From: Girardia tigrina
Lineage: Eukaryota
Direction of reading: 5' to 3'
Assembly: GCA_001938485.1 (NCBI GenBank)
Contig: MQRK01196038.1
Span: 1 to 51,345, forward strand
Length of the DNA: 51,345 nt
Position 1 is the stretch's first letter; each line of letters begins with the position of its first letter. The notes under the pieces are model-generated. The model worked only from the letters and a program-made list of their open reading frames with translations. It had not been told where the DNA came from and ran no database searches. This document shows positions 2,590-51,345 of this stretch, piece by piece. Position numbers and translations under genes: made by a program.

Positions 2590-2870
2590 TACTGTTACAG
2601 GTGTTATTCTCATGGATTCCGCGGATAAAGGTATTCGAATCAATGCTACTTGTTACAGCCAACTCGTAAAAAATCGCCAAAAAGAATTAACGGAGGTAGA
2701 AGAACACGTCACTATGTTTTCTCCACAACAATGCGGCAGTGCATACAGCGGGAATTTCATATGCAACAAGTTGATTTAAAAAGTCAAAGTTGTTAGAAGC
2801 ATTTAGTGGAATTTTTAGGTAATACCAAAGATGTGATAACTCCAATAAATCATTTTGAATTTTACGAGCC
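2590..2870 (+). pseudogene. Mariner transposase catalytic-domain relic
   Basis: Manual translation GVILMDSADKGIRINATCYSQL, then after a frameshift FLHNNAAVHTA; resembles mariner G.TIN..Y and LHDNA..H motifs. Confidence 0.7.
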
Positions 2871-3256: not shown

Positions 3257-3606
3257 ATATTAAGAACATTAATTAGGTTTTCTTGCGTAGCTCGTCATCG
3301 TTCTTGATTGATAATTTTAATAATATTCTTTAACGTCTTATTATTCAAACAAATTTAAATTACAATTTAATTATTATAAAAATAATTTATACTTTAAATT
3401 TGAAATAATTTTTATTTATTTTAAGAAAATATTAAAAAATTATTTATGAAATATTAGTTTAATTTTAAAGTGATTATTTAAATTTTAATACTTGATTAAA
3501 CAACCCGACGTTTTAAAATATTTAAGATATCAATCTTCCATCTGGGTGGGGGAAACACAATCCTAAAATAACATACAATAAATACCATTCAAAAATATTC
3601 CTCACA
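3257..3606 (-). mobile_element. Solo-LTR-like repeat, family B
   Basis: Ends TATTAAGAAC ... AATATTCCTCACA, core CCATCTGGGTGGG, flanked by CCAA/CCAA (3253-3256, 3607-3610). Confidence 0.7.
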
Positions 3607-6411: not shown

Positions 6412-7198
6412 TTAAATTATTTTTTTAAAAATTTCTTATTAGAAAAATTTAAATTGTTTTGTAATTTTAAATTACCTTTTCATTATAAATTTATATATTT
6501 TAATTTTATATATTTTATATAATATTAAAATTAATATCTGTTCACGTAACATTACATTATTAATATTTAAATATATAAATTTTATAAATTAATATTTATA
6601 AAATTAGTGAATAATTAAACAGAAAAGAAGCCAAACAAAGAAAACGTAAATCTAAAATATAATTATTTTGTAATGAAGATTGCCAAGAATAAATATTTTG
6701 CATTTATGAAATTATTATTTTATTACGTGTCACAATTTGACTAAATAATTAATTAATAATTTGATTAAATTGGTGAATTTAATATACTCGCCACTTGTGG
6801 AAATTGAGATCTTCTCCAAACAAAAGATTTTACAATTCCGAAATGTTTACAATCTTCAGAACCAAACATCCCACGAGATCGACTCTGTACTCAGAAGCTC
6901 TAGGATAGAAGTATCATTTGGTGATTAACTCAACCTAATCGCCTTTCCTTTTTATAAAAATATTAAACACAAATAGAAATTCCATAATTAAAAAAAATCT
7001 CTTTTGTGTCTGTCTGTTTCTGGTTTAATCAAAATAATACAGTTATTATATTTTTAAATATAGTAACTTATATATTTAACTCAAGATTATATAGAGTTTT
7101 GCGATCAAAATAAGATAATGTAACTTTCAAAATTAATTTATATCGATATTTTTTATGGCGTTTCGAATGTGACAAATCTAAGAATAATTATTTTAATA

Positions 7199-7240
7199 TG
7201 ATTATATATTTCGACGGTTTAAACCGACATCATCAGATCA
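7199..7240 (-). ncRNA. Minimal type I hammerhead ribozyme, Penelope-associated
   Basis: Minus strand TGAT-CTGATGA-T-GTCGGTTTAAACCGTC-GAAA-TATA-TA^ATCA: intact core boxes, 4-bp stem I, stem II with one mismatch, palindromic minimal stem III. Confidence 0.8.
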
Positions 7241-7329
7241 CTGATTATGTTCTTTTTTATTGCTTAAATATAAAAAATGAATGGTTATGTAATAATTTAC
7301 GTAAGTCTAATCGAAAACTCTTAACAAAT

Positions 7330-7620
7330 TACTTGAGCATTGATTTTAGGATCACATGATCTTATCAACAATGCTTCACATGACACTCTCTCCCAATAAT
7401 TTTTAAAATGCACAAAATCTTAAAATCATTTATGCTCATTTTACAGTTACACGTTTGTTATACTCAGCAATATCACTCTTTCCCCCGCTTTGACTGTTTT
7501 CTTGGACTCGTTTGCAGAGATGACGGGCAGTCTCTCCGATGTATGTGGCATTGCACCCATTACATGTGTATTGATAAACAATGTCCGAACAAAATGACGT
7601 TTAGTTTTGTTTTACTAAAA
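7330..7620 (-). pseudogene. Penelope-like element GIY-YIG endonuclease relic
   Basis: Manual translation DIVYQYTCNGCNATYIGETARHLCKRVQE...FKILC...WERVSCEALLIRSCDPKINAQ, with frameshifts; homologous to 26340-26780. Confidence 0.9.
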
Positions 7621-7694
7621 AAAATGCCATCTTTTTTCAAGTTTTTAATATGATTGTTTTAATTTATTTATATATGTTGTATCTCAGAGGAAGA

Positions 7695-8132
7695 TTAGAT
7701 ATTTTTATTCGTTTTCTGTTTATTCGATTTCATATTAAAGTTTAGTTTCTTTCTCAAGAAAAGACCGGTCTGAACCATCCTACAGGTCAAGGGAACATTG
7801 TTCAAGGAATCGTCATTGTGCTTCGTCACAATCTGTTTCTTCAACGCACTCGTATTGCAAGAATTGCTACAGCAATTAATCGGATCGAAATGATTAGTAG
7901 AAAAGAGATTGATTTGAATAAAACAAAATTCATTGAATTTTGAGTTCCCGGGAACAATTTCCCCATTGACACTCTCGGTTTCGGAATAATCCTCGAACGA
8001 ATTATTAACGACGCGTATCCACGAATCGGAATGATCGAAATTTCTCACGATAAATTCTTTATATTGTTGGAAAAATATCAAATGAATATTTTTAACGCAG
8101 CGCGATTTTGAGTCAATAACACCGTGTGACAA
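7695..8132 (-). CDS. Unassigned 145-aa coding-like ORF (host gene fragment or pseudogene)
   Basis: Long ORF in a locally GC-richer island, with no transposase motifs recognised; product uncertain. Confidence 0.35.
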   Translation of the reverse strand: MSHGVIDSKSRCVKNIHLIFFQQYKEFIVRNFDHSDSWIRVVNNSFEDYSETESVNGEIVPGNSKFNEFCFIQINLFSTNHFDPINCCSNSCNTSALKKQIVTKHNDDSLNNVPLTCRMVQTGLFLRKKLNFNMKSNKQKTNKNI

Positions 8133-8469
8133 AATTTTTCGAAAGTTTCTCTGGTTTTCAGAATTTTTTTGATACTTTTCAACATGTTGGTTTTGAATTT
8201 TTTACCGTTTTTCTTTTTCCGTCTCCGAATTAACCTATGAATTAAAGAAAAGAATTTAACAAAAAAAACCCTCATTTTTTAATTTCTTCGGCTTAGATTT
8301 GTTGTAATGAATATTTTTTCGTTCCATAATGTTCCACAAGAAGTTATATTTCAAAATATTAATAGCAAAGAAGCTCAAACTGACAAGAATAGCATAACAG
8401 TGGATTGTAAAGTCATGTGTGAACAATCAAAAGTGAAGGTTTGAACGAGACTGTCTTTTATGTTTTATG

Positions 8470-8705
8470 CTATCGTCTCTAATCAAAAACCAAAGGTAAT
8501 CTTCCATCATTGCTGTATGCCACGCTCCTTGGTACCTTTTCTCCGTTGTTTGCATATCCTAGTGGAAGCGTTCCCCCTGTTCCTCGCTAAAGTCACCAAG
8601 GGTTTCCCGAAACCAATGCAGATGCGAATGCAAATAATAAAGTTTTACCGACATTCTGCAGCCCAGTTTTTCGAAGTGTTTGAGCAAATCACTGAACAGT
8701 AGTTG
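8470..8705 (-). pseudogene. Transposase C-terminal relic with GERFH motif (CMC/Chapaev3-like)
   Basis: LLKHFEKLGCRMSVKL..LHSHLHWFRETLGDFSEEQGERFH*DMQTTEKRYQGAWHTAMMEDYLWFL matches the LGC.MS.K.H.LHSH...SDEQGERFHQD...E.RYQG block; superfamily assignment is from recall. Confidence 0.75.
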
Positions 8706-9389
8706 GTACACTTCACTCTTCTTATTTCCCAAGAATTTAAATTTTTGACTTTGTTTAATTTTAATTTAAATTGGGCTCAAGTAAAGGCCAAAGACAATCA
8801 CAGCGCGAACAATACATTATCGAAATATTTAACTTTATGGTTGAATTAATTTTTTTATTGATACTAGTGCAATCCTCCTTTCTTGTAGAGACATAAATCT
8901 ATATTGAATGCCAGAAAACGAAGTCCTAACCATCGATGCTCATCATTAATTTGTATAATTGTTGTTGCAATGCATAGAACAAGTTAATTTATGTAATTCT
9001 ATACAATCCAGTGTTTTAATTCATCGTTATAATTAAACAAAAATGTAAGAAAATTTCCCTTCTATTTATTAAAACGAATAATTTCAGGAGGTAAATTCTT
9101 CCAGTACATTTTAATTGAATGTTTAATTGATTTATGTCTGTTCTTTCTAAAGTTTTTTTTCAATCAGTTTAAATCAAAATTAATTCAAAAAATTTCAAAG
9201 AAAATTAATGATAAATTTACGAGGAATTAAAATTGAAAATTAAAATTGTTATTTGGCTGAGACTAAATAATTGTAATTTTTATTAGCTTTTTAATTAATA
9301 AATTTATAAATGAGTGAACAATAAATATATATTTATATTTATATAAAAATAAATAAATACTGTTGTCTTTATTTGAATGTGTGACATAT

Positions 9390-11045: not shown

Positions 11046-11173
11046 TACCCATATTCTCGAAATCTAATCATTTAACATTCTTACTCAAAGAAATTATAGT
11101 TTTTGCAATAATGGACATAAAAAATTTATAATTCCATAATATTCAGGATCAGTTATGGAATCAGCTTTAGACT

Positions 11174-11198
11174 TGTGAGGAATTGGTGTTCTTAATAA
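11174..11198 (+). mobile_element. Collapsed ~25-bp copy of family B (both termini only)
   Basis: AGACT-TGTGAGGAATTGGTGTTCTTAATA-AGACT: family B 5' end joined to its 3' end and flanked by a direct repeat. Confidence 0.7.
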
Positions 11199-11254
11199 GA
11201 CTTTTTGCCAGTAATGTATACAGAGACTGCTTTACTTTTAGAATATTAATTATA

Positions 11255-11660
11255 CATTCTTCCAATGATACTGCTCGGATTGCGGAACTCGACGTTAACC
11301 GGATCAAATGCCTCACCGGCACAACTATTGTACGGCTCTTCCACTTACCTTCTGGGAGACATTATCTTGGACAGTGAAAATCAATCGGCATATTCCAAAG
11401 AAGATATAGAAACAGCCATTCGTGGTTTTACAAGTCCGGTTGTAAACAAACACCCAACACGAAAAATCTTTGTTTCATCAGTATTATAAACGTTCACGTA
11501 AGTCTGGTTAAGAAGAGACATCATCGGTTCTCTCAAATCACCATACGAAGGACCTTATAAAGTGTTGCACCGATCCGAAGACAAAACAATATCGATTGAT
11601 CGTCTCAAACCAATGTTCACTTGTCAGGACACTCCTCTTCTTCCACAGGGGCATATGTAA
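11255..11660 (+). pseudogene. Ty3/Gypsy integrase C-terminal relic with putative PPT and LTR start
   Basis: LPMILLGLRNST....SPAQLLYG, PYEGPYKVL, ISIDRLKP, then AGGGG followed by TGT at ~11656. Confidence 0.85.
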
Positions 11661-17846: not shown

Positions 17847-18385
17847 GTATTAAGAACACCAATTTGACTTTTTATATTTTTATTTTAACAACAACTTTGA
17901 TTGTCCTTAAGACAATCTTTGTCTAAAGTTTCGTACATTTGCATTCTAAACTAAATTGATTAATGAATTAATTCTTATTATTTTTTAGCAAATGTGGAAA
18001 TAAATATTTTAATAAAATATTCACTCAAAACTTATTGGATAATAATTCAAATGATAATTAATTATTTAAAAAATATTAATTTGATTTATTTATTAAATAT
18101 TGTAAAAATTAATTATCTTATTTAAAATTTTAAAATTATTTGAAATTAGAAATAAATTTAAACATTACATATTTTTTAAGAATTACATATTTTTAAGAAT
18201 TAAAATAAATAATTAAAAATTAATTAACTTATTTAAAATTTTTAAATTATTTGAAATAAGAAATAAATTTAAATATTACATATTTTTTAAGAATTACATA
18301 TTTTTAAGAATTAAAATATTAGTCATCCATCTGGGTAGGAGAGACACAATTCCAAATCAACATACACATTCAAATATTCCTCACA
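17847..18385 (-). mobile_element. Solo-LTR-like repeat, family B, with internal ~110-bp tandem duplication
   Basis: Ends GTATTAAGAACACC ... AATATTCCTCACA, flanks TGAT/TGAT; strongly similar to 25447-25870 in inverted orientation. Confidence 0.75.
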
Positions 18386-20980: not shown

Positions 20981-21136
20981 ATCATCAGGTCACAATATGC
21001 TCTAAGTTAGCACACTAAGAGGAAGTATGACTAAAATAAATAACATTGGTGAATAAATATTATTGGTGAAATGTTTCATTCTTTAGGTATGTTTCCATAT
21101 AGTGTGTTAGCTTAGAACATTTTGTAACCTGATGAT
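20981..21136. repeat. Imperfect hairpin with ~55-bp arms
   Basis: ATCATCAGGTCACAATATGCTCTAAGTTAGCACACTA... pairs with ...TAGTGTGTTAGCTTAGAACATTTTGTAACCTGATGAT. Confidence 0.8.
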
Positions 21137-21204
21137 GGACTATTATTATCTCGAAAGGCATCGTCTTATTTTTATCCCTTGTAAATAGATTTGACTTCAC
21201 AATG

Positions 21205-24560: not shown

Positions 24561-25446
24561 GTCTTTTTATTATTTTTTATTAAAAGAAATTTACAGTTAA
24601 TTTTCCCAATATATTAAAAATAAATCAATGTCAATTTTTACAATGTATCAAAGCAATTTAAATATTTACAGAAATAATAATGCAGAAATGGAAAATAAAA
24701 TAAATCAAAGTTGTGAATTAATTTGCAGAAATTATTCTTTTTTTCTATTTTTACAATAATATTTTTTAAAGAAAATAGTTTTTTTTTCATAATTTTTCAT
24801 AATAATAAAATAGAACAGAAAAGAAGATAAATAAATAAAAAAATTTATCTATTAAAAATATAATACAGAAGTTTCCATATTATTATTATTTTATTATTAT
24901 TAATAATGTTATTAAAAGGATGAATATTTTAAATTGTTTATGGATGTCGTGTATTTATTTGAGTGTGTTGAAATTTAAAATTTAAATTTAAAAAGTAATA
25001 ATATAAAGTAATTTTGAATATATAAAATCTTCTTAAAAAATAAAATAAGCCTCTTTTTTATGTTTTAATTAAATTTATTTAAGAAGTTTGAATAATTTTA
25101 AAATTAGTTTAATTACTTTTAAATTTCATGAAATATTTTAAAATTAAAATAATGTTTAGGAAATTTGTTCGAATAATCATTATTAAAAATTTAGAAATCC
25201 TATTAATTAGAATGATGAAAAATTGTGAGAGATTCTCAGAGTTGTGATGACTCTAAATGTAATAATACTAAATGTCAGTGCTTTTAATAATTATTATTAG
25301 TATTATTATTATTTTTTATTATTAATGAAATTATGAGAGATTTAAAAGTGCAATTTGTTGATTATTTATTAATATATCTCACACTTAGTAATAAAAATCA
25401 TTATCTTTTAATAATTATTATTAGTATTATTATTATTTTTTATTAT

Positions 25447-25870
25447 TGTGAGGAATATTTTGAATGTTTGATGTTTTGTGTTTGAATGTTTATGTTGATT
25501 TGCAATTGTGTCTCTCCTACCCAGATGGATGATTAATATTTTAATTATTATAATCTGAAAATATGTAATATTTAAATTTATTTTTAAATTCAAATAATGT
25601 TAAATTTTAAATAAGTTAATTAATTTTTTAAAATTTTTAATAAATAAATCAAATTAATAGTTTTAAAATAATTAATAATCATTTTAATTTCTATCATATA
25701 AGATTTGAGTAAATATTTTAATAAATTATTTATGTCTCCGTTTGCTAAAAATAATAAAAATTAATTCATTAATCAATTTAGTTTAGAATACAATCGTACG
25801 AAAGCTTTGACAAAGATTGTCTTAAGGACAATCAGAATTGTTGTGTGAATAAAAATATGAACTTATCAAA
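25447..25870 (+). mobile_element. Family B LTR-like copy, 3'-truncated
   Basis: Starts TGTGAGGAATATTTT, contains CTCCTACCCAGATGG and shares GACAAAGATTGTCTTAAGGACAATC with 17847-18385. Confidence 0.75.
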
Positions 25871-25899
25871 TAATTATTTTAATTATGTTCAAATAGTTA

Positions 25900-26044
25900 A
25901 TCCTTTAAATTTAAATAAAAATACCAATTTCCATCTGGGTGGGAGAATCACCATTCTAAATTCAACATACTTAAATCAACATCATCATAAATCAGTCATC
26001 ATCCATACATTCGCACATTCATACAATTTAAAATATTCTTCACA
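25900..26044 (-). mobile_element. Family B partial copy, tail-to-tail with the previous copy
   Basis: TTCCATCTGGGTGGGAGAATCAC ... AAAATATTCTTCACA. Confidence 0.65.
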
Positions 26045-26230
26045 AATACTAGAAATAAAATTACTTTTGTTTATTTATAAAAAATTATTCTTTTTTAAGT
26101 GAAATCATATTGAATATTATTATCATTGTTGCCATTAATGTCGTTATTAAAATACTATATATATATATATAAATATTTAAAAAATGACGATAATGAATTT
26201 TTAAAAGTCAAAAAATTTTCGTCAGAATAT

Positions 26231-26272
26231 ATTGTGATTAATTTCGACGGATCAACCGTCATCATCAGACTG
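26231..26272 (-). ncRNA. Minimal type I hammerhead ribozyme, Penelope-associated
   Basis: Minus strand GT-CTGATGA-T-GACGG-TTGAT-CCGTC-GAAA-TTAA-TC^AC: perfect 5-bp stem II, palindromic stem III, short stem I. Confidence 0.8.
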
Positions 26273-26339
26273 AATNAACAATGATATACTCGCGTTTATA
26301 TATCAAAGCAATGTTTATGTAATCATTATGTCATTTAAA

Positions 26340-26780
26340 TCATGAAAATACTTTCAATAAAGTTGAAGAGGATGGCGTTTGGACATTGATTTTAGGATCA
26401 AAAGATTTGATCAACAATGCTTCAAACATCACCCTCTCCCAATAATTATCAAATTGTGAACACAAAATCTTAAAATTACTTACATCAACTTTACTATTCA
26501 AACAATTCTTATGTTGAGCAATATTGCTAACACTTTCTCTGCGATTATGTTCCTGAATCCGTTTACAGAGATGACGACAAGATATATACATATATATACA
26601 TAAAGTAAGCTAATACAAAGACTGGAAAAGGAGAGGTCAATTTCGCATGGACATGAAGTAGAAAAAGTACGAATCTTATTAGTTACCTGTCCCAGAAAGG
26701 GTATTGAAAAGTGGTGAGACAATTCTTTGTGCCTCTGGATGAACCAATTGGTACATATAGTTAGAAAATGCGTCTTAGTA
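26340..26780 (-). pseudogene. Penelope-like element linker plus GIY-YIG endonuclease relic
   Basis: FSIPFLGQVTNKIR; RHLCKRIQEH...SNIAQH...C...NFKIL...EALLIKSFDPKINVQ. Confidence 0.9.
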
Positions 26781-31091: not shown

Positions 31092-33717
31092 CGAATCCAT
31101 GGAATTTAGAAAACTTTTTTGGTCAACAGAATTTTTTTATTGTTTTTTTTTGAAAATATATTTTTCAATTAAAATATTTTTGGCCAAGTAGAGTTATTTT
31201 TTTGATTTACTAGTTTATGTTGTTAATTGTTCTTTCTGATAGGTTAAAGCTTGATAGTACTTATTTCGTTTCCTTAGTCCATGAACCTACGATAATATAA
31301 GATATTTTTTAAATGAAACTTATTTTCGGAATTATATGGGGATTTGAACACTTCTTGTCCATTGATGTAAGCACTATTTTTTAGTTTTAATTAGTGAGTG
31401 TCATATAATATTGTGGTTAATTGTATATATAAGACGTATAAAAGAATAAATTCTTCTAAAAGAATGCATTAATGTTATATATGAAAGATTTTTTAACAAA
31501 TTATTTAATTCTTCAAACTAATTTTGTTGAATTACTGTTCTTATGAACCAGTTTTAAAAAGAACTCTTGTTCTACATGCAAGTCAGTTTTGATAATTTAC
31601 AGGGAAGTCTCATTTTTATTGAAACCTTTTAAAGGTTTTTTTCAAACCTTCCCTAGTCGAAATTCCGTGTTGGACTAAATCTCCCGTTTGAAATAAAGCC
31701 CTCCTAAATCTCAAATCGGTTTATCCCTTTCCATAGAGATGTTTAGGCTGTTTAATACATCATTAATATCCCTTTTCGAATGCACCTAGAAGCATTATTT
31801 TATATCGAAAATGCTTAATTCCAAAGAATAAAAAAGATTGTTTATATATTTATTTATATTTGAAATCTTTATTCCCTACCACAGATTTTCTATTTTTACT
31901 CTTAAAAATAGACTGTTCAGATCACAATAAGTTCTTTGTGAATTGTCAAGGTATATTTCATATAAATATCATAGATTTAATAAAAAATATATAAAAAAAT
32001 ATATAAATAAATTATTCTAATTAAATTTCTTCAAGATTTTCATACAGTTTTTAATTCGAAAAAAACATGTCTGAAAACAATCGCATTATTATAAATGCAT
32101 ATTATAAAATAAATGAAAAAAATAATTAATTATTATTATTGTATAAGAAGAAAATATTTTTAATAATAAATGTTAAAAAAATAATATAAAAAATCAATTT
32201 GAAATATCGTTATTTATATTTTTTACAAACGTTAGTAACAAAAAATTCTTTTCTAAAGTAAAATATAACATTATTACATTTAAGTAATATATAAATAAAA
32301 TTGAGAGATTTCGTTTTGAAGTTTACCGTTTTCCTTTATTTAGTTAAAGAGAGTCTCTTGTAGCTACACAAAAATGTTATACGGCCCCAAATGTCTCTTC
32401 TGACAGCATTTCCATTCTTGTATATGTACATAGACATAAATATATTTCTTTAATCCTCAAATTGCTGTAGCTGGCGGCTGCGTATCCGCGCGATACTCTT
32501 TGATTAAGGAAACGTTTTCGCCGCAAATAACAAATTCATGGGAGTAAAAGGATTAATGGAGTTCAAAATAAATGATTTTACTCGATTTTCGGTCTTGTTA
32601 AACTAAAAACAAAAACGATTTTCTTTTCCTTTTCAAACAGCAAATAGAATATTATTAAAATTAATAATTTCTTTCTATTTTAATAAGACATTTATTAGAA
32701 CAGGAAAAATAGTATTAGATGATGATTTTTTTATAATATTTTTAAGAAAAGCTTTTTTTGTTATTAAAATAGATGAAAATTTTTAAAATTTTTTTTTAAG
32801 TACAATTTTAAGTACAATATTTTAAAATTAGTTGGTTTAACCTTCGATCTACAAACTTTCGTATGTCCAGCAATATTACTACCGTTACCCAATCTTCCAA
32901 CAGTTTACAGAGATTAATACATAAATAAAATTACTACATAAAAGTAGTAGGAGATTTATGGCTGAAAATACTTTGAATTTTGTAAGATTTAGAATCTAAA
33001 TTAATTCTAAATTGAATCTAAATTTGACATTAGTTTTTAAATTTCTTATTAAGAATTAAAAATATTAAAATAAAAATTGCTTACTTAATATTTTATTTAT
33101 AAGTAAATATTTTTGAAATGAAAAAAAATATTAATAATCAGATAAAAAATGATAATTTAATCTTTTTTAATTATTTTTTCAAAAAAATATTTAAATTAAT
33201 CAGGTTAATTTTAAATTTTTTTACTATTTTATAATTAATTTTTTGGAAAATATTTGAGAAAAAAATTATTGATAAAGAAAGTTATTTAGTTAAAAATCTG
33301 TAATAAATATAACAAAATATAAAAATACAAAAATTATAAAAATAAGTAATAAAATGAATTTTTGGTAATTAATAATTTGTTTTTAAAAAATATTTTAGAA
33401 AATTAAAAAAAACTATTATTATTAATTATTATATATAGAAAAATATCATAATTTATTATTAATTTTGCCATTAGTTTTACAATGACATTAAATTTTTTTA
33501 AAAAAGAATATTTCAATAAATCTTTTACAAATCCCTCAATTTATTCAGCAGATATGCTCCAAAAAATTGTGTAAAATGAAACCACTTTATACGAAAAAAG
33601 GAACCGATATTAAAAGAGGATTTGTTCTCAGATTATTTGGAAGGTGAAGTTATAATTATAGCATAAATATATAACTATTTTTTAATTATAAATGCAATAA
33701 TCGCTACAACTTGAAAT

Positions 33718-37210: not shown

Positions 37211-37324
37211 TTTGAACGCGGAGAATTTAAAAATAAAATGAATAGTATGAAACTCGTTGTGATCTCTCATTGTGGCCGAGTCAGAATATAAATGATTAAT
37301 ACAATCTACAGGGTGACGCAAAAT

Positions 37325-37651
37325 GTTTTTGTTTATTAAAATATCAATTACCAATTGCCTTTTCATTAAGGATTGTACATTTGACTAAAAAATAAATTTG
37401 TCTTAGGGACAGCTGGATATGACCACATTTATGCTTTTAGATCCAAAGCTCAACTTGAGTAGGTTTAGTCCATTATTTGGAGACTGATGGTCACGCTGTG
37501 TGCCCTTCGAATAATAATCTAATTATGGTTTTGGTCATAATGGTTCGTTTTTACATCTCGGTATCCTCTACAATCATAATTTCATCAAAAATTACCATGA
37601 TTCAGAAAAGGAAACTTGATATTTTCAATACATCAGAGATAATTATTTGTA
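37325..37651. repeat. 327-bp inverted duplicate of the right flank (39201-39527) of the adjacent transposon
   Basis: No mismatch seen on reading; the ORF track shows identical 60-aa ORFs at 37477-37659(+) and 39193-39375(-). Preceded by TA and a 16-nt TIR tip at 37309-37324. Confidence 0.95.
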
Positions 37652-39200
37652 CAGGGTGACGCAAAATAAACTCCAAGGTACTTTTCTATTGGATCTTTTT
37701 ATCCACCTACTTTTTTATAGGTAAAGTTTTTAGAATCCTGAGCGTCGCCAAATTCTGATGGTATATAAAATAAATCAAAAAAATCAAAAAAAACATCAAA
37801 AATTAAAGAAAAATTTGTGAGACGAAAAATTTAACAAGCTTTTTATTTCATAAAGCATAACAACAATTAATTATTGAATTTCAACTTGTCCTCCATCTCT
37901 AAGAAAACATTCATGCAAACGTCGTTTGTAGTCGGCCACAACGCGTTCATGAAGTACGCGGTCTCCATGGATTTCATTGGCAACTCCTTCAATCGCTGCT
38001 CTCAACTCTTCGAATGTCTTGGACGTTGTTCGCGATGATAAATTCGACCTTTCATATAGCCCCACAACCAATAGTCACATGCTGCAAGATCTAGCGAGCG
38101 AGGTGGCCATGTAACTGGAGCAGGATGCGCCCGTGTTCTGCGACCTATCCATCGATTTGGAAACTGTTGACCCAACAATTCAAGAAAATCTCCAAGAATG
38201 TGTGGCGGAGCGCCGTCATGCTGCTCAATGAGAGAATTGAGATTCGGCCAAGTTTGAAGCTCTGGAATAACGTGCTCTTCATACAATTCAGTCATCCAAC
38301 GACCATTGATTCCGCGCTCATTTCCTTGTCACTCCCAAAAGTATGGGCCAACAACACCTTCAAACCAATGAGGATTTTCATCGGCCCACATAATCCAGTC
38401 TTGACGATTGACGCTTCCGTCCAAATGAAAGTGGGCTTCATCCGTAAAAAGAAGATTGTTGAGTCTGTTTGCATCTTCATCCAATCGATCCAATTCGGTT
38501 CGAGCAAACTAAATTCGAGCGGCATAGTCGGTCTCCTCCAAGGCATGAGCCATTTGCCAATTATAGGGACGCATCTGTAAGTCTTCTTTCAAAATTCGCT
38601 GCAAGCTTCTTTGTGGCATACGAACTGTTCCGTGATCGTCTTCTTCGCTGTCAGTGTCGCCAGTTGAAACAAGTGGATTGCGTCGAGTTGATAGATGAGG
38701 ATTTGCAGTAAAGGCTTCACGGACGTCTTCAATGGCTTCTTTGGTGCGAATACGTTTTGGCTTGTTCTTTCCGCGCTTTCCATGGACACTTCCAGTCACT
38801 GGAAAATCGTCAATCCATTTTACAATGACTCTTTTTTCCGGAATTTTTGCTCGACCATTTCTTGTTTCACTTCGGAATCGAGTTTTTAGCTGCGCATAAT
38901 CATAGGCTTCCTCAATAAGCATCAAAACGAGATGAGCTTTTTACTGATCCGTATACGTCATTTGAATCAAATTTTAGGGTAAAACTTTCTAAGTTCATTT
39001 TAAAAAACGCTTGTTAAATTTTTCGTCTCAAATTTTTTTTTAATTTTTGATGTTTTTTTTGATTTTTTTGATTTATTTTATATACCATCAGAATTTGGCG
39101 ACGCTCAGGATTCTAAAAATGTATACTTTACCTATAAAAAAGTAAGTGGATAAAAATATCCAATAGAAAAGTACCTTGGAGTTTATTTTGCGTCACCCTG
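37652..39200 (-). mobile_element. Tc1/mariner-superfamily element, rosa/VS (DD41D)-like, ~190-200-bp TIRs, flanked by TA
   Basis: TIRs begin CAGGGTGACGCAAAATAAACTCC; TA at 37650-37651 and 39201-39202; transposase inside. Confidence 0.95.
37871..38961 (-). pseudogene. Transposase pseudogene with D..D46D catalytic triad
   Basis: ATG at 38961; FTDEAHFHLDG, QHDGAPPH, WIGR, WPPRSLDLAACDYWLWGYMK. In-frame TAA 38941-38943, TAG 38509-38511 and TGA 38329-38331; frameshift near 38020. Confidence 0.93.
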
Positions 39201-41978
39201 TACAAATAATTATCTCTGATGTATTGAAAATATCAAGTTTCCTTTTCTGAATCATGGTAATTTTTGATGAAATTATGATTGTAGAGGATACCGAGATGTA
39301 AAAACGAACCATTATGACCAAAACCATAATTAGATTATTATTCGAAGGGCACACAGCGTGACCATCAGTCTCCAAATAATGGACTAAACCTACTCAAGTT
39401 GAGCTTTGGATCTAAAAGCATAAATGTGGTCATATCCAGCTGTCCCTAAGACAAATTTATTTTTTAGTCAAATGTACAATCCTTAATGAAAAGGCAATTG
39501 GTAATTGATATTTTAATAAACAAAAACGTTGATAATCGGGTTGACAGTGTTTGTTTACGGGTTTATCTACGAAGACATTTTATAAACAAGCCACATTTAT
39601 TTATAAACAATAAACAATATAAAGAAAGCAAACTAAAATTCTTTTTCTAACTGAATAAAATTATGAATAATTTTCTTCTGAAAACTGTCTAAAATATAAT
39701 TATGTTTATAAAAAATAAGAATTAATAAAATAATTTATTTCTTCAAGATTTTATTTATTCCCTTCATCTTTGGTGCACCTTTGTTTCTTGACGGCGAACC
39801 CCGGGGTCATTCTGGTGCTCGTTACGAGGGGGTTGTTTATTTTTTTAAATATTTCGGAATTAATCTGAAAAAGACGGATCGGAGCCGTGAGTTGAATAAT
39901 GTGGCTCAATTCTTATCAAGATCAATGAAATTATTTTCGATTATTTATAATTATTTATATTTATAAATATTTATTTAATATATTTTAATGTCTTATAAAA
40001 TAATATATATTATTCTAGATAATATTATACATTATATTATTTATTGCTTAATTTACTACTTTTTATTGTATTTAACGAAAAAAAGATATATTTAATTAAA
40101 GTAGATATAGAATGAAATATTAATTAAAGTAATAAAAACGGAACTCTAAAAAATAATTAGTCAAATTTTATGCATTAATTATTATATATTTTATTAATAA
40201 CTTATTAAGGAAACTTAATTAAAAATCTTTATCAATTTTGAATAAACGGAATTTATTTTATTGATTAATTAATTATCTGACAAAAAATCAATAATAATAA
40301 TATATATTAAATGAATACGAAAAATAATATTTAAATATATAATTTTGAGTTTTAATTAGAAAAAAATTATATAATGAATTTTTAAATCTTTCACCTGGTG
40401 GAATTTGATTTTAAATATTACAAAATAATGGATTATTAATTAAAACCAAAAAATTTTTACGTAAATTTTTTTATTTTTTTTGTAAACAATTTTGCTTCAT
40501 AGGAATAATAATTAAATTAAAATATAATTACACATCAAAATATCTTTATTCTATATTTTTGTATTTTTATAACTAATGACTTATATTATAAATCTATATT
40601 ATTGTATTCGTTTCGACAAGTTTACACGATTTTAGTGCACCAGATATTAAAGGAATAAATTCAATTCCATCTATTTTACTTTCAAAAAGACATAATTTAA
40701 GACAAAATAATTACATGTGTAACAAGAGCTTTTTTATATTACCACGTTTTTAACGTCACTAGAAATATGATTAATTGCAAAAATATTTTATATTATTTGA
40801 ACGTTGACTACTTGTTTTCTAAAAGATAAGTATTTTTAAACAGAATTATATCAATTTTTAAGTTTTAAATTTAAAATGGTTTAGACATTGGAATTATGGT
40901 TATCAGAATAAATTCGATGTAAAATATAATTAAAATGCACAAGAGTGATTAGATGCTGCTGCTGCATTAAATTTAAATAAAAAAATAGATTTCAGTATTT
41001 TGGCCGGTTTTTTGATGCCTGTACTGTGTAATGCTATGCTTTTCCAGACTCAAAAGAATTTTCCAAAAAAATAATTGAGTTTACACACCTCTACTGTCCT
41101 CTATTATTCTATACACTTAATATATATTTTTCACTTTTGTTTCTTAATTTTTGCACTGTTTAGAATTTTTATAATCATTTTTTTCGACTATATTGTCCTT
41201 AAAATTTCAGTTTTCTATTTTAAAATATTTAATCACTCTATTCTCACTAAACAATCACAAAATACACAAATTTTTACGAAATATTTAAATAAATTAGATA
41301 TCAACTGTTTACATAAACTATTAAAATCCATATACTTTCAACAACGCCATTTATCTATGTTCTTCTTCAATTCCTATATATTTAAATTGACCGGTATAAG
41401 CGTTAACTAAAATTGATAAAATAAAATGATGAATTAAAATTAATTTATATCGTAAGATATAATCTGATTTGAGCTATTAATTATTATTAATTAACAACAA
41501 CGGAGATTCATATTTGATCAAAACAAAGATTCAAATCATTTTATTATACAAAATTTATTCATATAAATTGGGGTCTACGACAAAAACGCCGTGGACAAAA
41601 CGCCGCGGACAAAAATGGCTTAAATTAACCGACAAATTATAGAAATTTTAAATGGAGCACAATCTTTGAGTAGATAGAATGTTAATATTTTGTTTTTTAA
41701 AAAAATTTTACAAAAGTCAAAATATCTTTAAATAATAAAAATAAAAATCCATATAAAAATATTATTTTCGGAATTATTTTTATACTAATGTGGAAAAATA
41801 TTTAGTATTTATTTAATTTATTACTATTTTTAAAATTTTAGTATTAATTTATAACATTAAAAAAATAAAAATAAAAATAAAATAAATACAATAATTTATT
41901 TATAATTTATAAATATTAGAAATTAGATTAAATTATTAAATTTTTTCAATTATTTTTACGAAATAATGTTAATTAAAA

Positions 41979-44483: not shown

Positions 44484-44862
44484 CTATTAAGAACACTAAT
44501 TGGATTTTTAATAAATTTATTCAACTTGAAGCGCCAATAGGACAATTTTCCATAAAACTTTTGTAGTTAATCATCATTCTTGATTAATAAATTTTATTCT
44601 ATTTCTCAAAGTCTTATTATTTAAACAAGTTGAAATTACAATTTATTTACAATTCGATTAAAAGATAATTTATATTATTAATTAAAAAATATTTTAGATA
44701 TATTTAAATTAAGGCTCAGTTATTTAAATTTTAAAATTGAATAAATAATTCAACGTTTTGAAATATTTAAAATATCAATCTTCCATCTGGGTGGGAGAAA
44801 CACTATCCTTAAACAACAAAAGAAACAACATACAATAAGCAAAATTCAAAATATTCCTCACA
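44484..44862 (-). mobile_element. Solo-LTR-like repeat, family B
   Basis: CTATTAAGAACAC ... CCATCTGGGTGGGAGAAACAC ... AAAATATTCCTCACA; flanks AAAA/AAAA (low complexity). Confidence 0.7.
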
Positions 44863-44933
44863 AAAAAAATTTTTTCGATGGTCTGTAGTCATTCATAGAT
44901 TAATTGATATTTATTTAGCTGATATAAATATTT

Positions 44934-45117
44934 TGTCATCTAAACACGCTCAATAGGGTTTTCGAGAGACCCGTTTGCACATTAATCTTAGGATCTAAAT
45001 ATCTGATATATAGTGCTTTATTTTTTTATATAAAGCACTTTATATCAGATCTTTAGATCCTAAGATTAATGTGCAAACGGGTCTCTCGAAAACCCAATTG
45101 AGCGTGTTTAGATGACA
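44934..45117. repeat. Near-perfect 184-bp palindrome (88-bp arms, 8-nt loop)
   Basis: TGTCATCTAAACACGCTCAA...GTGCTTTAT / ATAAAGCAC...TTGAGCGTGTTTAGATGACA; 3 mismatches counted by eye. Confidence 0.95.
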
Positions 45118-45379
45118 TAATAATCCATTGATGACATAATCACTGCTTGCATATATAAGCAGATTTAAAATTCATTTTTCTTGATATAAATATTATTTTT
45201 GGAATTAATATTTGAGGTTTAATATTGTAAATATATGTGTTTGATTTAATTATTATTTTATCTATGTGATGCGTTCAATTGTTACTCGATCTGACCAGGA
45301 AAACTTGTTTAGAGACTTGAAACATTTTGCAAGAACGACTACGTCAATCTAGGTTTTTATCATTGCTTTTGTTTCACTT

Positions 45380-46990: not shown

Positions 46991-47379
46991 GCCGCCATCA
47001 CTTTTCCTTAGATATTATTTATTAGGCATTCTTTTTTTCTGCGGATTTATTACTTAATTTATGACTTAATTACCGTTATTCCCCCGAAAATACGAAATCA
47101 GAAGTACTTCATTTTTTGGTTTGAATCAGTTGAACTTGTTGAATGTATTTTTATGATTTATTTGATAATTTTGTAAAATGGAATATTTTTTTTAAAAAAT
47201 TTTTTCTTTTATTTGTTTATTAATTAATTAACTGATTTATTTATTTATTATTTTAAACAAAATAATTAATAAAATAATTAGAAAGGAAATTTTGTTAGGT
47301 AAGAGATCAAGATTCACAAGTTTTTATTGTGCTTTATAAATATTTTCCCTAATGAAGTCGAAAAGAACATGCCCATGAA

Positions 47380-49235
47380 TAATTTGTTTAACCAACATTG
47401 AATTTGACGAACTATGAACAATGTGGAATCCAACATTCTGTCCACACATTTTCCAGCGTCTTACCAGCTCCAAAAATGCATTAAAGTCGATTCATCACTT
47501 CTTTGAATTCTGCTTTTGGGATGGAATATCTTTCTCGTAGATGTCCTTTCAGATGAAGGAACAAATACAAATCACTCAGAGCTAAGTCTAGTATATATGG
47601 AAAGTATGGGAGGAGTTTAAATCCATATCCTCAATTTTCTCGCAGAGAATGAAAATGCACCTGATTATATTGTAAAATTATCATGGAGGAAATAGAAAAT
47701 ACATTTTGTCATTTGTGAATTTCCACTCCGACTCCTGTTTAGTGTCTGGTCGATACAGAGAGCGCGGGCTTTCTAACTGTCGCAAAGTCACTGCCTGTGA
47801 CGAATTGAGTCTGTTTTCACACATTTCACTTGTAAGAAAGCGTGGAGCGAATCGTGAAGAATGTTAAAGATCATTATTGTGTGATGCGTCTGTCAAATTT
47901 GACAATATTCTTCAATTTTTATTTTATGTTTTCGACAATGTCCAACAGTCGTCTTGTACTTTTCTCATCAAAACATTCTGTCTACCATGCCTAAATTATG
48001 TAATTTATCAATAACTAGTGGTTTTAGATGTGTTTTCAATATGATATAAGGACTGAGTGCGAAAAATATTACAAACTTTAAATCTCTATAACTCCAACAT
48101 AAATTCACAAATTACAAAAAACTAATTTAGGAGGCTGTTGTTTGAATAAATCGGAATAAAATTCATTTTTAAATTTGATTTTTCATGAATATGTCGTCAG
48201 AAACAGGAAGTCACGAATTAATTATTCGTTTATTTCAAGAAAATCCACAATCAAATCAGAAAACAGTTTCCAACATTATTAAAAACTTCAATGAAGACTT
48301 GAACGTTTTTAGAAAAATTAGTTCGGGAAGAAGAAATGATTTTTTGTGTACACAGAATCTGAAGAAAGTAAAGGATCTGTTAGAGAGAAATCCTCGTCTA
48401 TCAAATTTAAAACTGGTTGTAAAGCCAAATTGTAGCTAGAAAACAGTTCGGAATGTGGGTTTAAAACGTATAAAAATTCAAACAGTACCAGACCGGAACA
48501 CTAACAAGAATGTAAAGGTGCAGGAGCGAGCAAGAAAGATGAAATCTGGTTTTCTTGCGAAGAAAAATTGTTGCATTATGGGTGATGAGACTTATATGCC
48601 CTGCGAGTTTTCCCAGCTACCCGGACAAGAATTTTACTCTGCAACTAAGAGAGGAGGAGTTGTAGAAAAATTTAGAAACAAGAAAAAATCTAAGTTTCCC
48701 AAAATATTTCTTGTTTAGCTGGAAAAGGAGTAAAGACTTTTTTACATTTGGCACAATAAACACAGAAGTCTATGTGAAGGAGTGCTTGCAAAAGCGTTTA
48801 TTCATATGTCAGCACCGAAGTCTAAATCGAAAAATATTGTGCCTTGTAAAAAGGAAATTAAAGACGATAAACAAGAGGGCACAGATAATTGCAGATTTTC
48901 GGAACAAGTGGAATAATGCAGCCAAATACGTGACAGAAACTATAATTGCAAGTCTAATAGCAGACATTCCGGAAAAGCTCGCAGAATTTATTAAAAAAAT
49001 AAATAATCTTTCTTAGCTTACAAAAAATTATTTTGAATTAAACACATTTTTCAAAACAGTCGGTATTTTTTCAATCAAATATATGGTTTTGAAGATAGAT
49101 GATTTTAAAGTTAGTAATATTTTTTGCATTCAGTTCTTACATTCATCAACTCGCCAATAATGTCGTTTGCTGGCAACTTCTTTAAAACAAGAAACTTAAT
49201 TTAATCACGAAATTCCACGGGAGAGTACTTGATTA
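47380..49235 (-). mobile_element. Decayed mariner split by a nested insertion at 48049-49137
   Basis: IKFLVLKK...IIGELMN (49141-49200) | FRHGRQNV, SRFAPRFLTSEM, PYFPYILDLALSDLYLFLHLK, LVRRWKMC (47420-48000); outer boundaries approximate. Confidence 0.8.
48049..49137 (+). mobile_element. ITmD37E-like Tc1/mariner element, internally deleted
   Basis: TA flanks (48047-48048, 49138-49139); ~50-bp TIRs AGGACTGAGTGCGAAAAATATTAC / GTAATATTTTTTGCATTCAGTTCT; CIMGDETY..EFSQLPGQEFY...KFPK, GTINTEVYVKECLQKRL. The D37E segment itself is missing. Confidence 0.8.
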
Positions 49236-51089: not shown

Positions 51090-51345
51090 TGTGAGGGAAA
51101 ATTCTGAATGTTGTAAGTTTGTTGTTTTTATGCTGTTTAGATTTGTGATTCTCCTACTCAGATGGGATTGATATGTTATTTGATTAATTATTTAAATGTA
51201 ATGAGATTAATCTAATGAGATTAATTTAATGGTTTAAATACTAATTAATTGAAAAGTTTTATTATTATAAATTTTAATAATATTTTTAAGTAAAATATTT
51301 TAATAATATTTTAATTGTCACGGGTGTCAAAACTCGTACATCGGA
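51090..51345 (+). mobile_element. Divergent family B copy, 3' end not identified
   Basis: TGTGAGGGAAAATTCTGAATG ... TTGTGATTCTCCTACTCAGATGG. Confidence 0.6.

Follow-up and report, generated by a model that had tools for sequence, protein, structure and literature searches.

A Penelope-type minimal hammerhead motif in a truncated, probably non-cleaving retroelement relic of Girardia tigrina

Introduction

Minimal hammerhead ribozymes occur in the pLTRs of Penelope-like elements, and the sections of the published description that deal with their architecture (Cervera and De la Pena, 2014; PMC4209133) give as traits an extra nucleotide that separates position 9 from 10.1, a G10.1-C11.1 pair and a palindromic helix III. 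In the same sections monomers are reported as uncleaved and dimers as weakly cleaved, and a tentative role is all that is offered for the ribozyme in vivo. A second described system is PAc, a Poseidon element of Anolis carolinensis, in which ribozyme cleavage needs the protein of the element and is not required when insertion takes place in vitro (Frangieh et al., 2024; PMC11167929). The start codon of the PAc ORF is at stem II, 26 bp before the cut, and PAc insertions end 111-118 bp into the ORF without target homology (PMC11167929). Non-LTR retrozymes carry a type I hammerhead likewise derived from Penelope pLTRs, and the portions of the source that define them describe non-coding tandem repeats (10.64898/2026.07.22.740005).

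Here we describe a hammerhead motif at 7241-7198 of a window from Girardia tigrina, the window being the whole stretch of 51,345 nucleotides that was analysed. It is a known ribozyme in a known retroelement, and the locus is one more decayed copy. We read it, with a probability of about 0.8, as a 5'-truncated, frameshifted 3' end of a Penelope/Poseidon-type element whose minimal hammerhead, itself of a known kind, is here likely a passively decaying, non-cleaving relic. A single decayed copy matters little; it is useful as a pointer.

The traits set out in the architectural sections of PMC4209133 recur at this locus: a type I core, an unpaired nucleotide between 9 and 10.1, G10.1-C11.1, a helix I of 4-5 bp, a small palindromic helix III, a location in the pLTR, and an occurrence mostly as solitary copies from truncated elements. 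Helix II differs, with 5-6 bp and a mismatch in the focal copy compared with the 7-8 bp given there for Schistosoma. Identity as a non-LTR retrozyme was considered and rejected: the focal motif is solitary and fused to a piece of endonuclease, and no tandem unit was found.

A truncated element with a GIY-YIG endonuclease relic

The window is AT-rich and of eukaryotic type (19-36% GC in 2-kb bins), with many transposon relics. The focal insertion consists of the following parts.

7204..7642, minus strand: 5'-truncated Penelope-like insertion body, about 439 bp if the flanking repeat described below is a target-site duplication
7439..7600, minus strand: GIY-YIG endonuclease, N-part (VYQY..CNGC..YIGET..R)
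7307..7410, minus strand: endonuclease C-part (YWER..EALLI..P.IN), with the ancestral stop codon TAG at 7309-7307
7242..7306, minus strand: 3' untranslated part of the pLTR, which aligns with a second copy in the window (copy 2) and with a metagenomic relative (L001)

The GIY-YIG relic that had been proposed from the letters alone is real. Compared with the endonuclease of P0001, a protein that combines RT and endonuclease and has an RVT_1 match at E 3e-13, its two pieces show identities of 59% (7600-7454) and 74% (7410-7330); they also match P0002, which has a GIY-YIG domain at E 3e-5. The body (7626-7204) shares 65% DNA identity with L001, the peptide of copy 2 is 94% identical to P0001, and a profile search with the focal endonuclease piece retrieved 131 proteins at E <= 0.001. 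Domain and structure libraries gave less: the focal GIY-YIG piece gave a match only when scanned at E 0.1, as a member of alignment A2; nothing passed the curated Pfam cut-off among 9 and then 145 window frames (145 of the 288 frames of at least 45 codons, chosen mainly by GC content); and a PDB search returned only marginal matches to retron RT (E about 0.08).

The pieces lie in different frames, split by frameshifting deletions. The focal copy has three deletions relative to copy 2; a 4-nt gap at 7408 is present in contigs of the family too. The CCHH residues (C35, C38, H57, H69) are nearly invariant among relatives in alignment A2. The focal copy keeps both cysteines and has lost both histidines, to Asn at 7498-7496 and Tyr at 7462-7460, and at 7498 the family letter accounts for 406,931 of 413,051 of the summed contig depth.

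In the relatives P0001, P0008 and L001 a single ORF encodes RT and then a C-terminal GIY-YIG domain, of which the focal copy holds the endonuclease end only. None of six long relatives has a CX2-5CxxC finger within the linker that joins RT to endonuclease, and five of the six have the DKG motif. Under the definitions of Craig et al., as far as their clade descriptions go, this points to a Penelope/Poseidon-type element, a call that rests on motifs of the relatives. The features shared with that clade in those descriptions are a C-terminal endonuclease with CCHH, the lack of a linker CX2-5CxxC finger and the DKG motif, together with 5' truncation, adjacent inverted copies and an optional tail; the variable target-site duplication of the clade has a candidate counterpart here (10.1101/2021.04.23.441226). 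The Hydra clade, for which CCHH must be absent, was rejected, CCHH being present in the focal family. As a separate observation, P0019 is built from a Penelope-type endonuclease segment that recurs seven times in nearly identical form, and is perhaps a tandemly amplified fragment.

A minimal hammerhead behind the stop codon

On the minus strand, 7241 to 7198 reads GTGAT CTGATGA T GTCGGTTTAAACCGTC GAAA TATA TA ATCAT, with C3 at 7236 and N17 (A) at 7203. The motif divides as follows, and the 3' arm of helix I (ATCAT, 7202-7198) falls inside the candidate target-site duplication.

7237..7241, minus strand: helix I, 5' arm GTGAT
7229..7236, minus strand: core CUGAUGA (7236-7230) and the extra U9.1 (7229)
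7213..7228, minus strand: helix II, with the closing pair G10.1-C11.1 (G7228-C7213), a U-U mismatch (7227/7214) and a 6-nt loop
7203..7212, minus strand: GAAA (7212-7209), palindromic helix III AUAUAU (7209-7204) and N17 (7203), with the predicted cut after 7203

The letters and coordinates in the sequence-only reading, with its predicted cleavage between 7203 and 7202, are all borne out on the minus strand. It had also described an intact core beside a frameshifted ORF, which agrees with what we find: the conserved CUGANGA, GAAA and UH are present, with every catalytic core letter kept, and the endonuclease pieces are in different frames. Its distance of "~90 nt" past the endonuclease is fair, since C3 follows the stop codon at 70 nt and the last conserved motif of the endonuclease at about 97 nt. 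It overlooked three details, namely the U-U mismatch at 10.2/11.2, the 6-nt loop II, and the placement of the helix I 3' arm inside the candidate duplication. Helix I of the focal copy has 5 bp, including one G-U pair, and is the longest among the five motifs compared below.

A search of the kind that reading had suggested, with a minimal-hammerhead descriptor allowing a base after A9, gave two strict matches in the window (7236 and 26268), each of them preceded by an endonuclease relic; in 400 block-wise dinucleotide shuffles the rate was 0.0025 matches per window. The descriptor was composed after the motif and PMC4209133 were known. A looser descriptor added a third match at 21129. An Rfam scan of the window returned seven weak matches and no hammerhead at E <= 5. 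The letters and geometry support the identification already put forward, a minimal type I hammerhead of a Penelope pLTR with a palindromic helix III, its traits matching those in the architectural sections of PMC4209133.

Related motifs and covariation

Two further motifs lie in the window.

26170..26600, minus strand: second Penelope end (copy 2), of a sister subfamily, with endonuclease C-part, pLTR, hammerhead and a 66-nt tail
21127..21164, plus strand: third, degenerate minimal-hammerhead-like motif, resembling the type of the metagenomic locus L002, without a recognisable ORF upstream

The hammerhead of copy 2 (C3 at 26268) has a perfect helix II, the palindrome AUUAAU, an AUC triplet and a predicted cut after 26236. 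A metagenome scan confirmed 3 of 15 candidates. L001 has an open RT+endonuclease frame of 744 codons and a similar motif behind it, L002 has another, and L003, which ends before the motif position, was excluded from the motif set. The distance from stop to motif is 70 nt in the focal copy, 71 nt in copy 2, 74 nt in L001 and 176 nt in L002.

When five motifs were aligned, 49 of 55 cells paired, 7 of the 11 pairs changed on both sides, none of 500 shuffles reached the score, and slid registers paired at 24-51%. The outcome favours the earlier account, which would have been contradicted by a core neither conserved nor covarying across copies, and is partly circular, because the five motifs were picked for fitting the descriptor. 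Perfect palindromes of three kinds (AUAUAU, AUUAAU, AUGCAU) are present in four of the five; the extra nucleotide after A9 is U in all five; and the 10.1-11.1 closing pair is G-C in four and G-U in L001. Helix II spans 15 nt in copy 2, L001 and L002 and 16 nt, with its 6-nt loop, in the focal copy. About half of the family depth has a 5-nt loop II, one base fewer than the focal copy, and a perfect 12-nt palindrome within helix II was on both counts rejected as a family trait.

A DNA pattern derived from copy 2 found no locus in viral contigs and one in prokaryote genomes (L004). This locus has no UH, no palindrome and no helix I, and the alignment leaves it out. Protein scans found no relative in viral contigs (0 of 21 candidates) or in prokaryote genomes (0 of 11).

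These results bear on whether the motif is a chance match or a host regulatory element exapted in a 3' UTR, which we consider scarcely credible. The locus and its helix II mismatch recur in both DNA runs described below, so that assembly error does not account for them, which would suit such a reading; against it stand the rate of matches in shuffled windows and the covarying relatives at the equivalent place. Directly upstream, 7669-8400 is a different high-copy repeat, where summed depth ranges from thousands up to more than 100,000, and the 168-codon open frame at 7698-8201 sits inside it, without a Pfam match. That frame was rejected as a host exon with the motif in its 3' UTR, being part of another repeat and having Atlas scores all below 0.9. 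None of the 145 scanned frames reached the Pfam cut-off, and no host gene was identified around the motif.

State of the focal copy

Contigs of four of the 24 listed runs were used, two of DNA, one of them possibly the source sample, and two of RNA, one of which is only guessed to be RNA. Over 7213-7269 the summed contig depth, which is not a copy number, was 510,343 and 735,571 in the two DNA runs, compared with 30 and 47-61 in the flank. The very high depth spans 7213-7611 and the flank is single-copy; the Penelope family of the focal copy is very abundant.

Within this family the focal helix II is unusual. The letter at 7227 that pairs (A) makes up 198,927 of 202,349 and 258,131 of 264,878 of the summed depth (97-98%), and both the family majority and copy 2 pair fully, whereas 10.2/11.2 is U-U in the focal copy. 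In both DNA runs the contig of the locus itself carries the mismatching letter, so the mismatch is not an assembly error. In folding predictions it costs about 4 kcal/mol (helix II at -3.2 versus -7.1) and lowers the probability of the closing pair in a longer context from 0.96 to 0.06-0.08; in a short context that pair keeps a probability of 0.86-0.87. The L001 motif, which stands behind an open frame, likewise folds poorly (closing pair 0.01-0.22), and folding programs are therefore a weak guide to activity.

An intact motif of this kind is predicted, by analogy with the described systems, to cut only as a dimer formed through its palindrome, probably aided by the protein of the element. The focal motif is a lone monomer, no tandem partner having been found in the window. 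The nearest motif on the same strand lies 19 kb upstream and has a different palindrome; were the focal motif to pair with copy 2 in a mixed dimer, two of six positions, both central, would be mismatched. Both RNA runs include RNA contigs that resemble the endonuclease part at 80-95%; over 7213-7326 there is no contig in either, and contigs alone cannot prove silence. We infer that the hammerhead of the focal copy is inactive or nearly so. The suggestion of the sequence-only reading that the motif may still cleave read-through transcripts is left unsupported, given the rare U-U mismatch, the lone monomer and the lack of an RNA contig over the motif. Later decay of the insertion would comprise the frameshifts, the loss of both zinc-finger histidines and the acquisition of the helix II mismatch.

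Cleavage of read-through RNA might nevertheless persist at a low rate, through pairing with a second transcript of the same locus or of the family. The motif retains its core letters, its palindrome and a helix I of 5 bp, so abundant a family could supply partners in trans, RNA contigs akin to the endonuclease part occur in both RNA runs, and upstream, on the strand of the motif, there is a transposase-like relic. We regard such activity as distinctly unlikely: besides the rare mismatch, the lack of a tandem copy nearby, the imperfect mixed dimer and the absence of RNA contigs over the motif, the cleavage assays in PMC4209133, as reported in its sections on them, left monomers uncut and cut dimers little, and the PAc ribozyme depends on its protein (PMC11167929). 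Copy 2, in which the focal mismatch is absent, is the better candidate for a cleavage assay. Its hammerhead is better preserved than the focal one, and it is located between TA repeats.

Possible overlap with the start codon

The triplet A9-U9.1-G10.1 reads ATG in all five motifs (7230-7228 in the focal copy). Two related proteins, P0155 and P0160, begin MMTNISSKYI; a reading from the L001 motif matches P0160 weakly (13 of 22, E 0.04), and a reading from the copy 2 motif matches P0155 weakly (13 of 32, E 0.1). P0155 and P0160 come from one related cluster, and P0155 shares 67% identity with the frame of L001. Only these 2 of the 45 listed proteins start in this way, many of the 45 being fragments. 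In copy 2 the 66-nt tail can be read as resembling the beginning of the ORF, and in the focal copy the 6-nt loop breaks the frame that starts in the motif after three codons.

Judged from these alignments, the hammerhead likely overlaps the start codon of the ORF of the element; in intact elements the start codon concerned would likely belong to the next copy in tandem. The arrangement would be that of PAc, whose ORF likewise starts at stem II (PMC11167929). The conserved extra U may be kept by the start codon, and the overlap, if general, would give a reason for the conserved extra nucleotide. Cleavage would then remove the AUG from the RNA of the downstream ORF. Neither a start-codon overlap nor insertion ends at the cut appears in the description of minimal hammerheads in the architectural sections of PMC4209133.

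Ends of the insertion

The focal insertion stands between two copies of a 13-bp direct repeat, and another Penelope fragment of the window is relevant to the interpretation of that repeat.

7643..7655, minus strand: 5' copy of the 13-bp direct repeat, a candidate target-site duplication, boundary uncertain
7191..7203, minus strand: 3' copy of the repeat, which starts at N17 and holds the helix I 3' arm (7202-7198)
44920-45194: a Penelope fragment of fold-back type, in which the endonuclease C-terminus is present as two inverted copies, with arms at 44929-45021 and 45030-45122

The repeat may be due to chance or be internal to the element, the copy ending or decaying shortly behind the motif at a position without meaning. 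This is possible, though on the unlikely side. The surroundings are AT-rich and of low complexity, weak peptide likeness to the element reaches 7654 and may run through the 5' copy of the repeat, and that copy lies in a weak 23-nt tandem repeat. However, a 13-nt match arose in only 0.6% of 20,000 random pairs of AT-rich flanks, the depth over 7612-7668 is about 1000-fold (X1) and 150-fold (X2) lower than over the element body, and the fold-back fragment (44933-45181) is also flanked by a 13-bp repeat. No target-site duplication was assignable for copy 2, which is enclosed by TA repeats, nor was one for the motif at 21129. The fold-back hairpin is also the source of spurious microRNA matches in Rfam.

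The end of the focal copy, a single case, coincides with the cut site or is no more than 5 nt away from it. The copy has no tail, because the 3' repeat starts at N17 and the family depth fades to near flank level within the 7156-7212 bin, whereas the tail of copy 2 runs 66 nt behind the cut. The one-sided 3' extension of the fold-back fragment ends 66 nt behind the stop (45181), just before a hammerhead would begin.

One way to obtain such an end is to copy the insertion from the 5' cleavage product, so that its 3' end is the cut site and the 3' arm is target DNA that pairs by chance or selection. The exact start of the 3' repeat at N17, the fading depth and the missing tail would all fit. Three points make it improbable in our view. 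First, it is a single case, and without selection the chance that a target starts with the 4-nt complement of helix I is 0.7%. Second, the other two datable ends lie elsewhere, 66 nt behind the cut in copy 2 and just before the motif at 45181. Finally, the dominant template of PAc is uncleaved RNA, with no reads ending at the cut (PMC11167929). Still more doubtful is the extension of this reading in which the tail-less insertion is a trace of cutting in vivo, the ribozyme ending the template and the freed helix I arm helping to choose the site.

Because the helix I complement at the start of the target would be so rare an event, microhomology priming is favoured over a copied cleavage product, and we infer that the end of the insertion is best read in this way. 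The focal copy would probably have been made by target-primed reverse transcription on uncleaved RNA, starting a few bases behind the cut, with priming through about 5 nt of microhomology to an AT-rich target; such a route would leave a 13-bp duplication and no tail. Unlike PAc, the focal copy ends at or close to the cut with apparent microhomology, and the uncleaved RNA and homology-free start of PAc fit neither microhomology priming nor a copied cleavage product fully (PMC11167929). Among titles and abstracts on Penelope insertion, none was found on insertion ends at the cut site. The abundance of the family means that 3' junctions could be mapped relative to the cut site, a direct test of cleaved RNA as template.

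Other elements in the window

Further Penelope endonuclease fragments lie at 32776-32993 (minus strand), resembling the P0002 subfamily, and at 51310-51345 (plus strand), where the window end cuts the fragment. Upstream of the focal insertion, 8448-8735 (minus strand) is a relic 91% identical to part of P0174, a member of an unnamed family that is widespread in animals and that we take to be transposase-derived. Short frames at 2588-2776, 11170-11660, 47317-47630 and 48179-49013 look to us like mariner, LTR-integrase and Tc1 relics; 2588-2776 is the only one of the four sites with a Pfam match, a weak one to a transposase. Beside the Penelope 3' end of L001, a broken frame at 2601-2780 (minus strand of that locus) starts MADQLIQEQLAEFK and is presumably calmodulin-like. 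An AT-rich dispersed repeat family has at least four copies in the window (3287-3606, 17848-18362, 25440-25960 and 44560-44860), with a conserved GC-richer core for which no coding match was found. Finally, 37322-39530 holds an element with 406-bp terminal inverted repeats that are 99% identical; the frames inside it are broken and without a Pfam match, and from its motifs we assume it to be Tc1/mariner-like.
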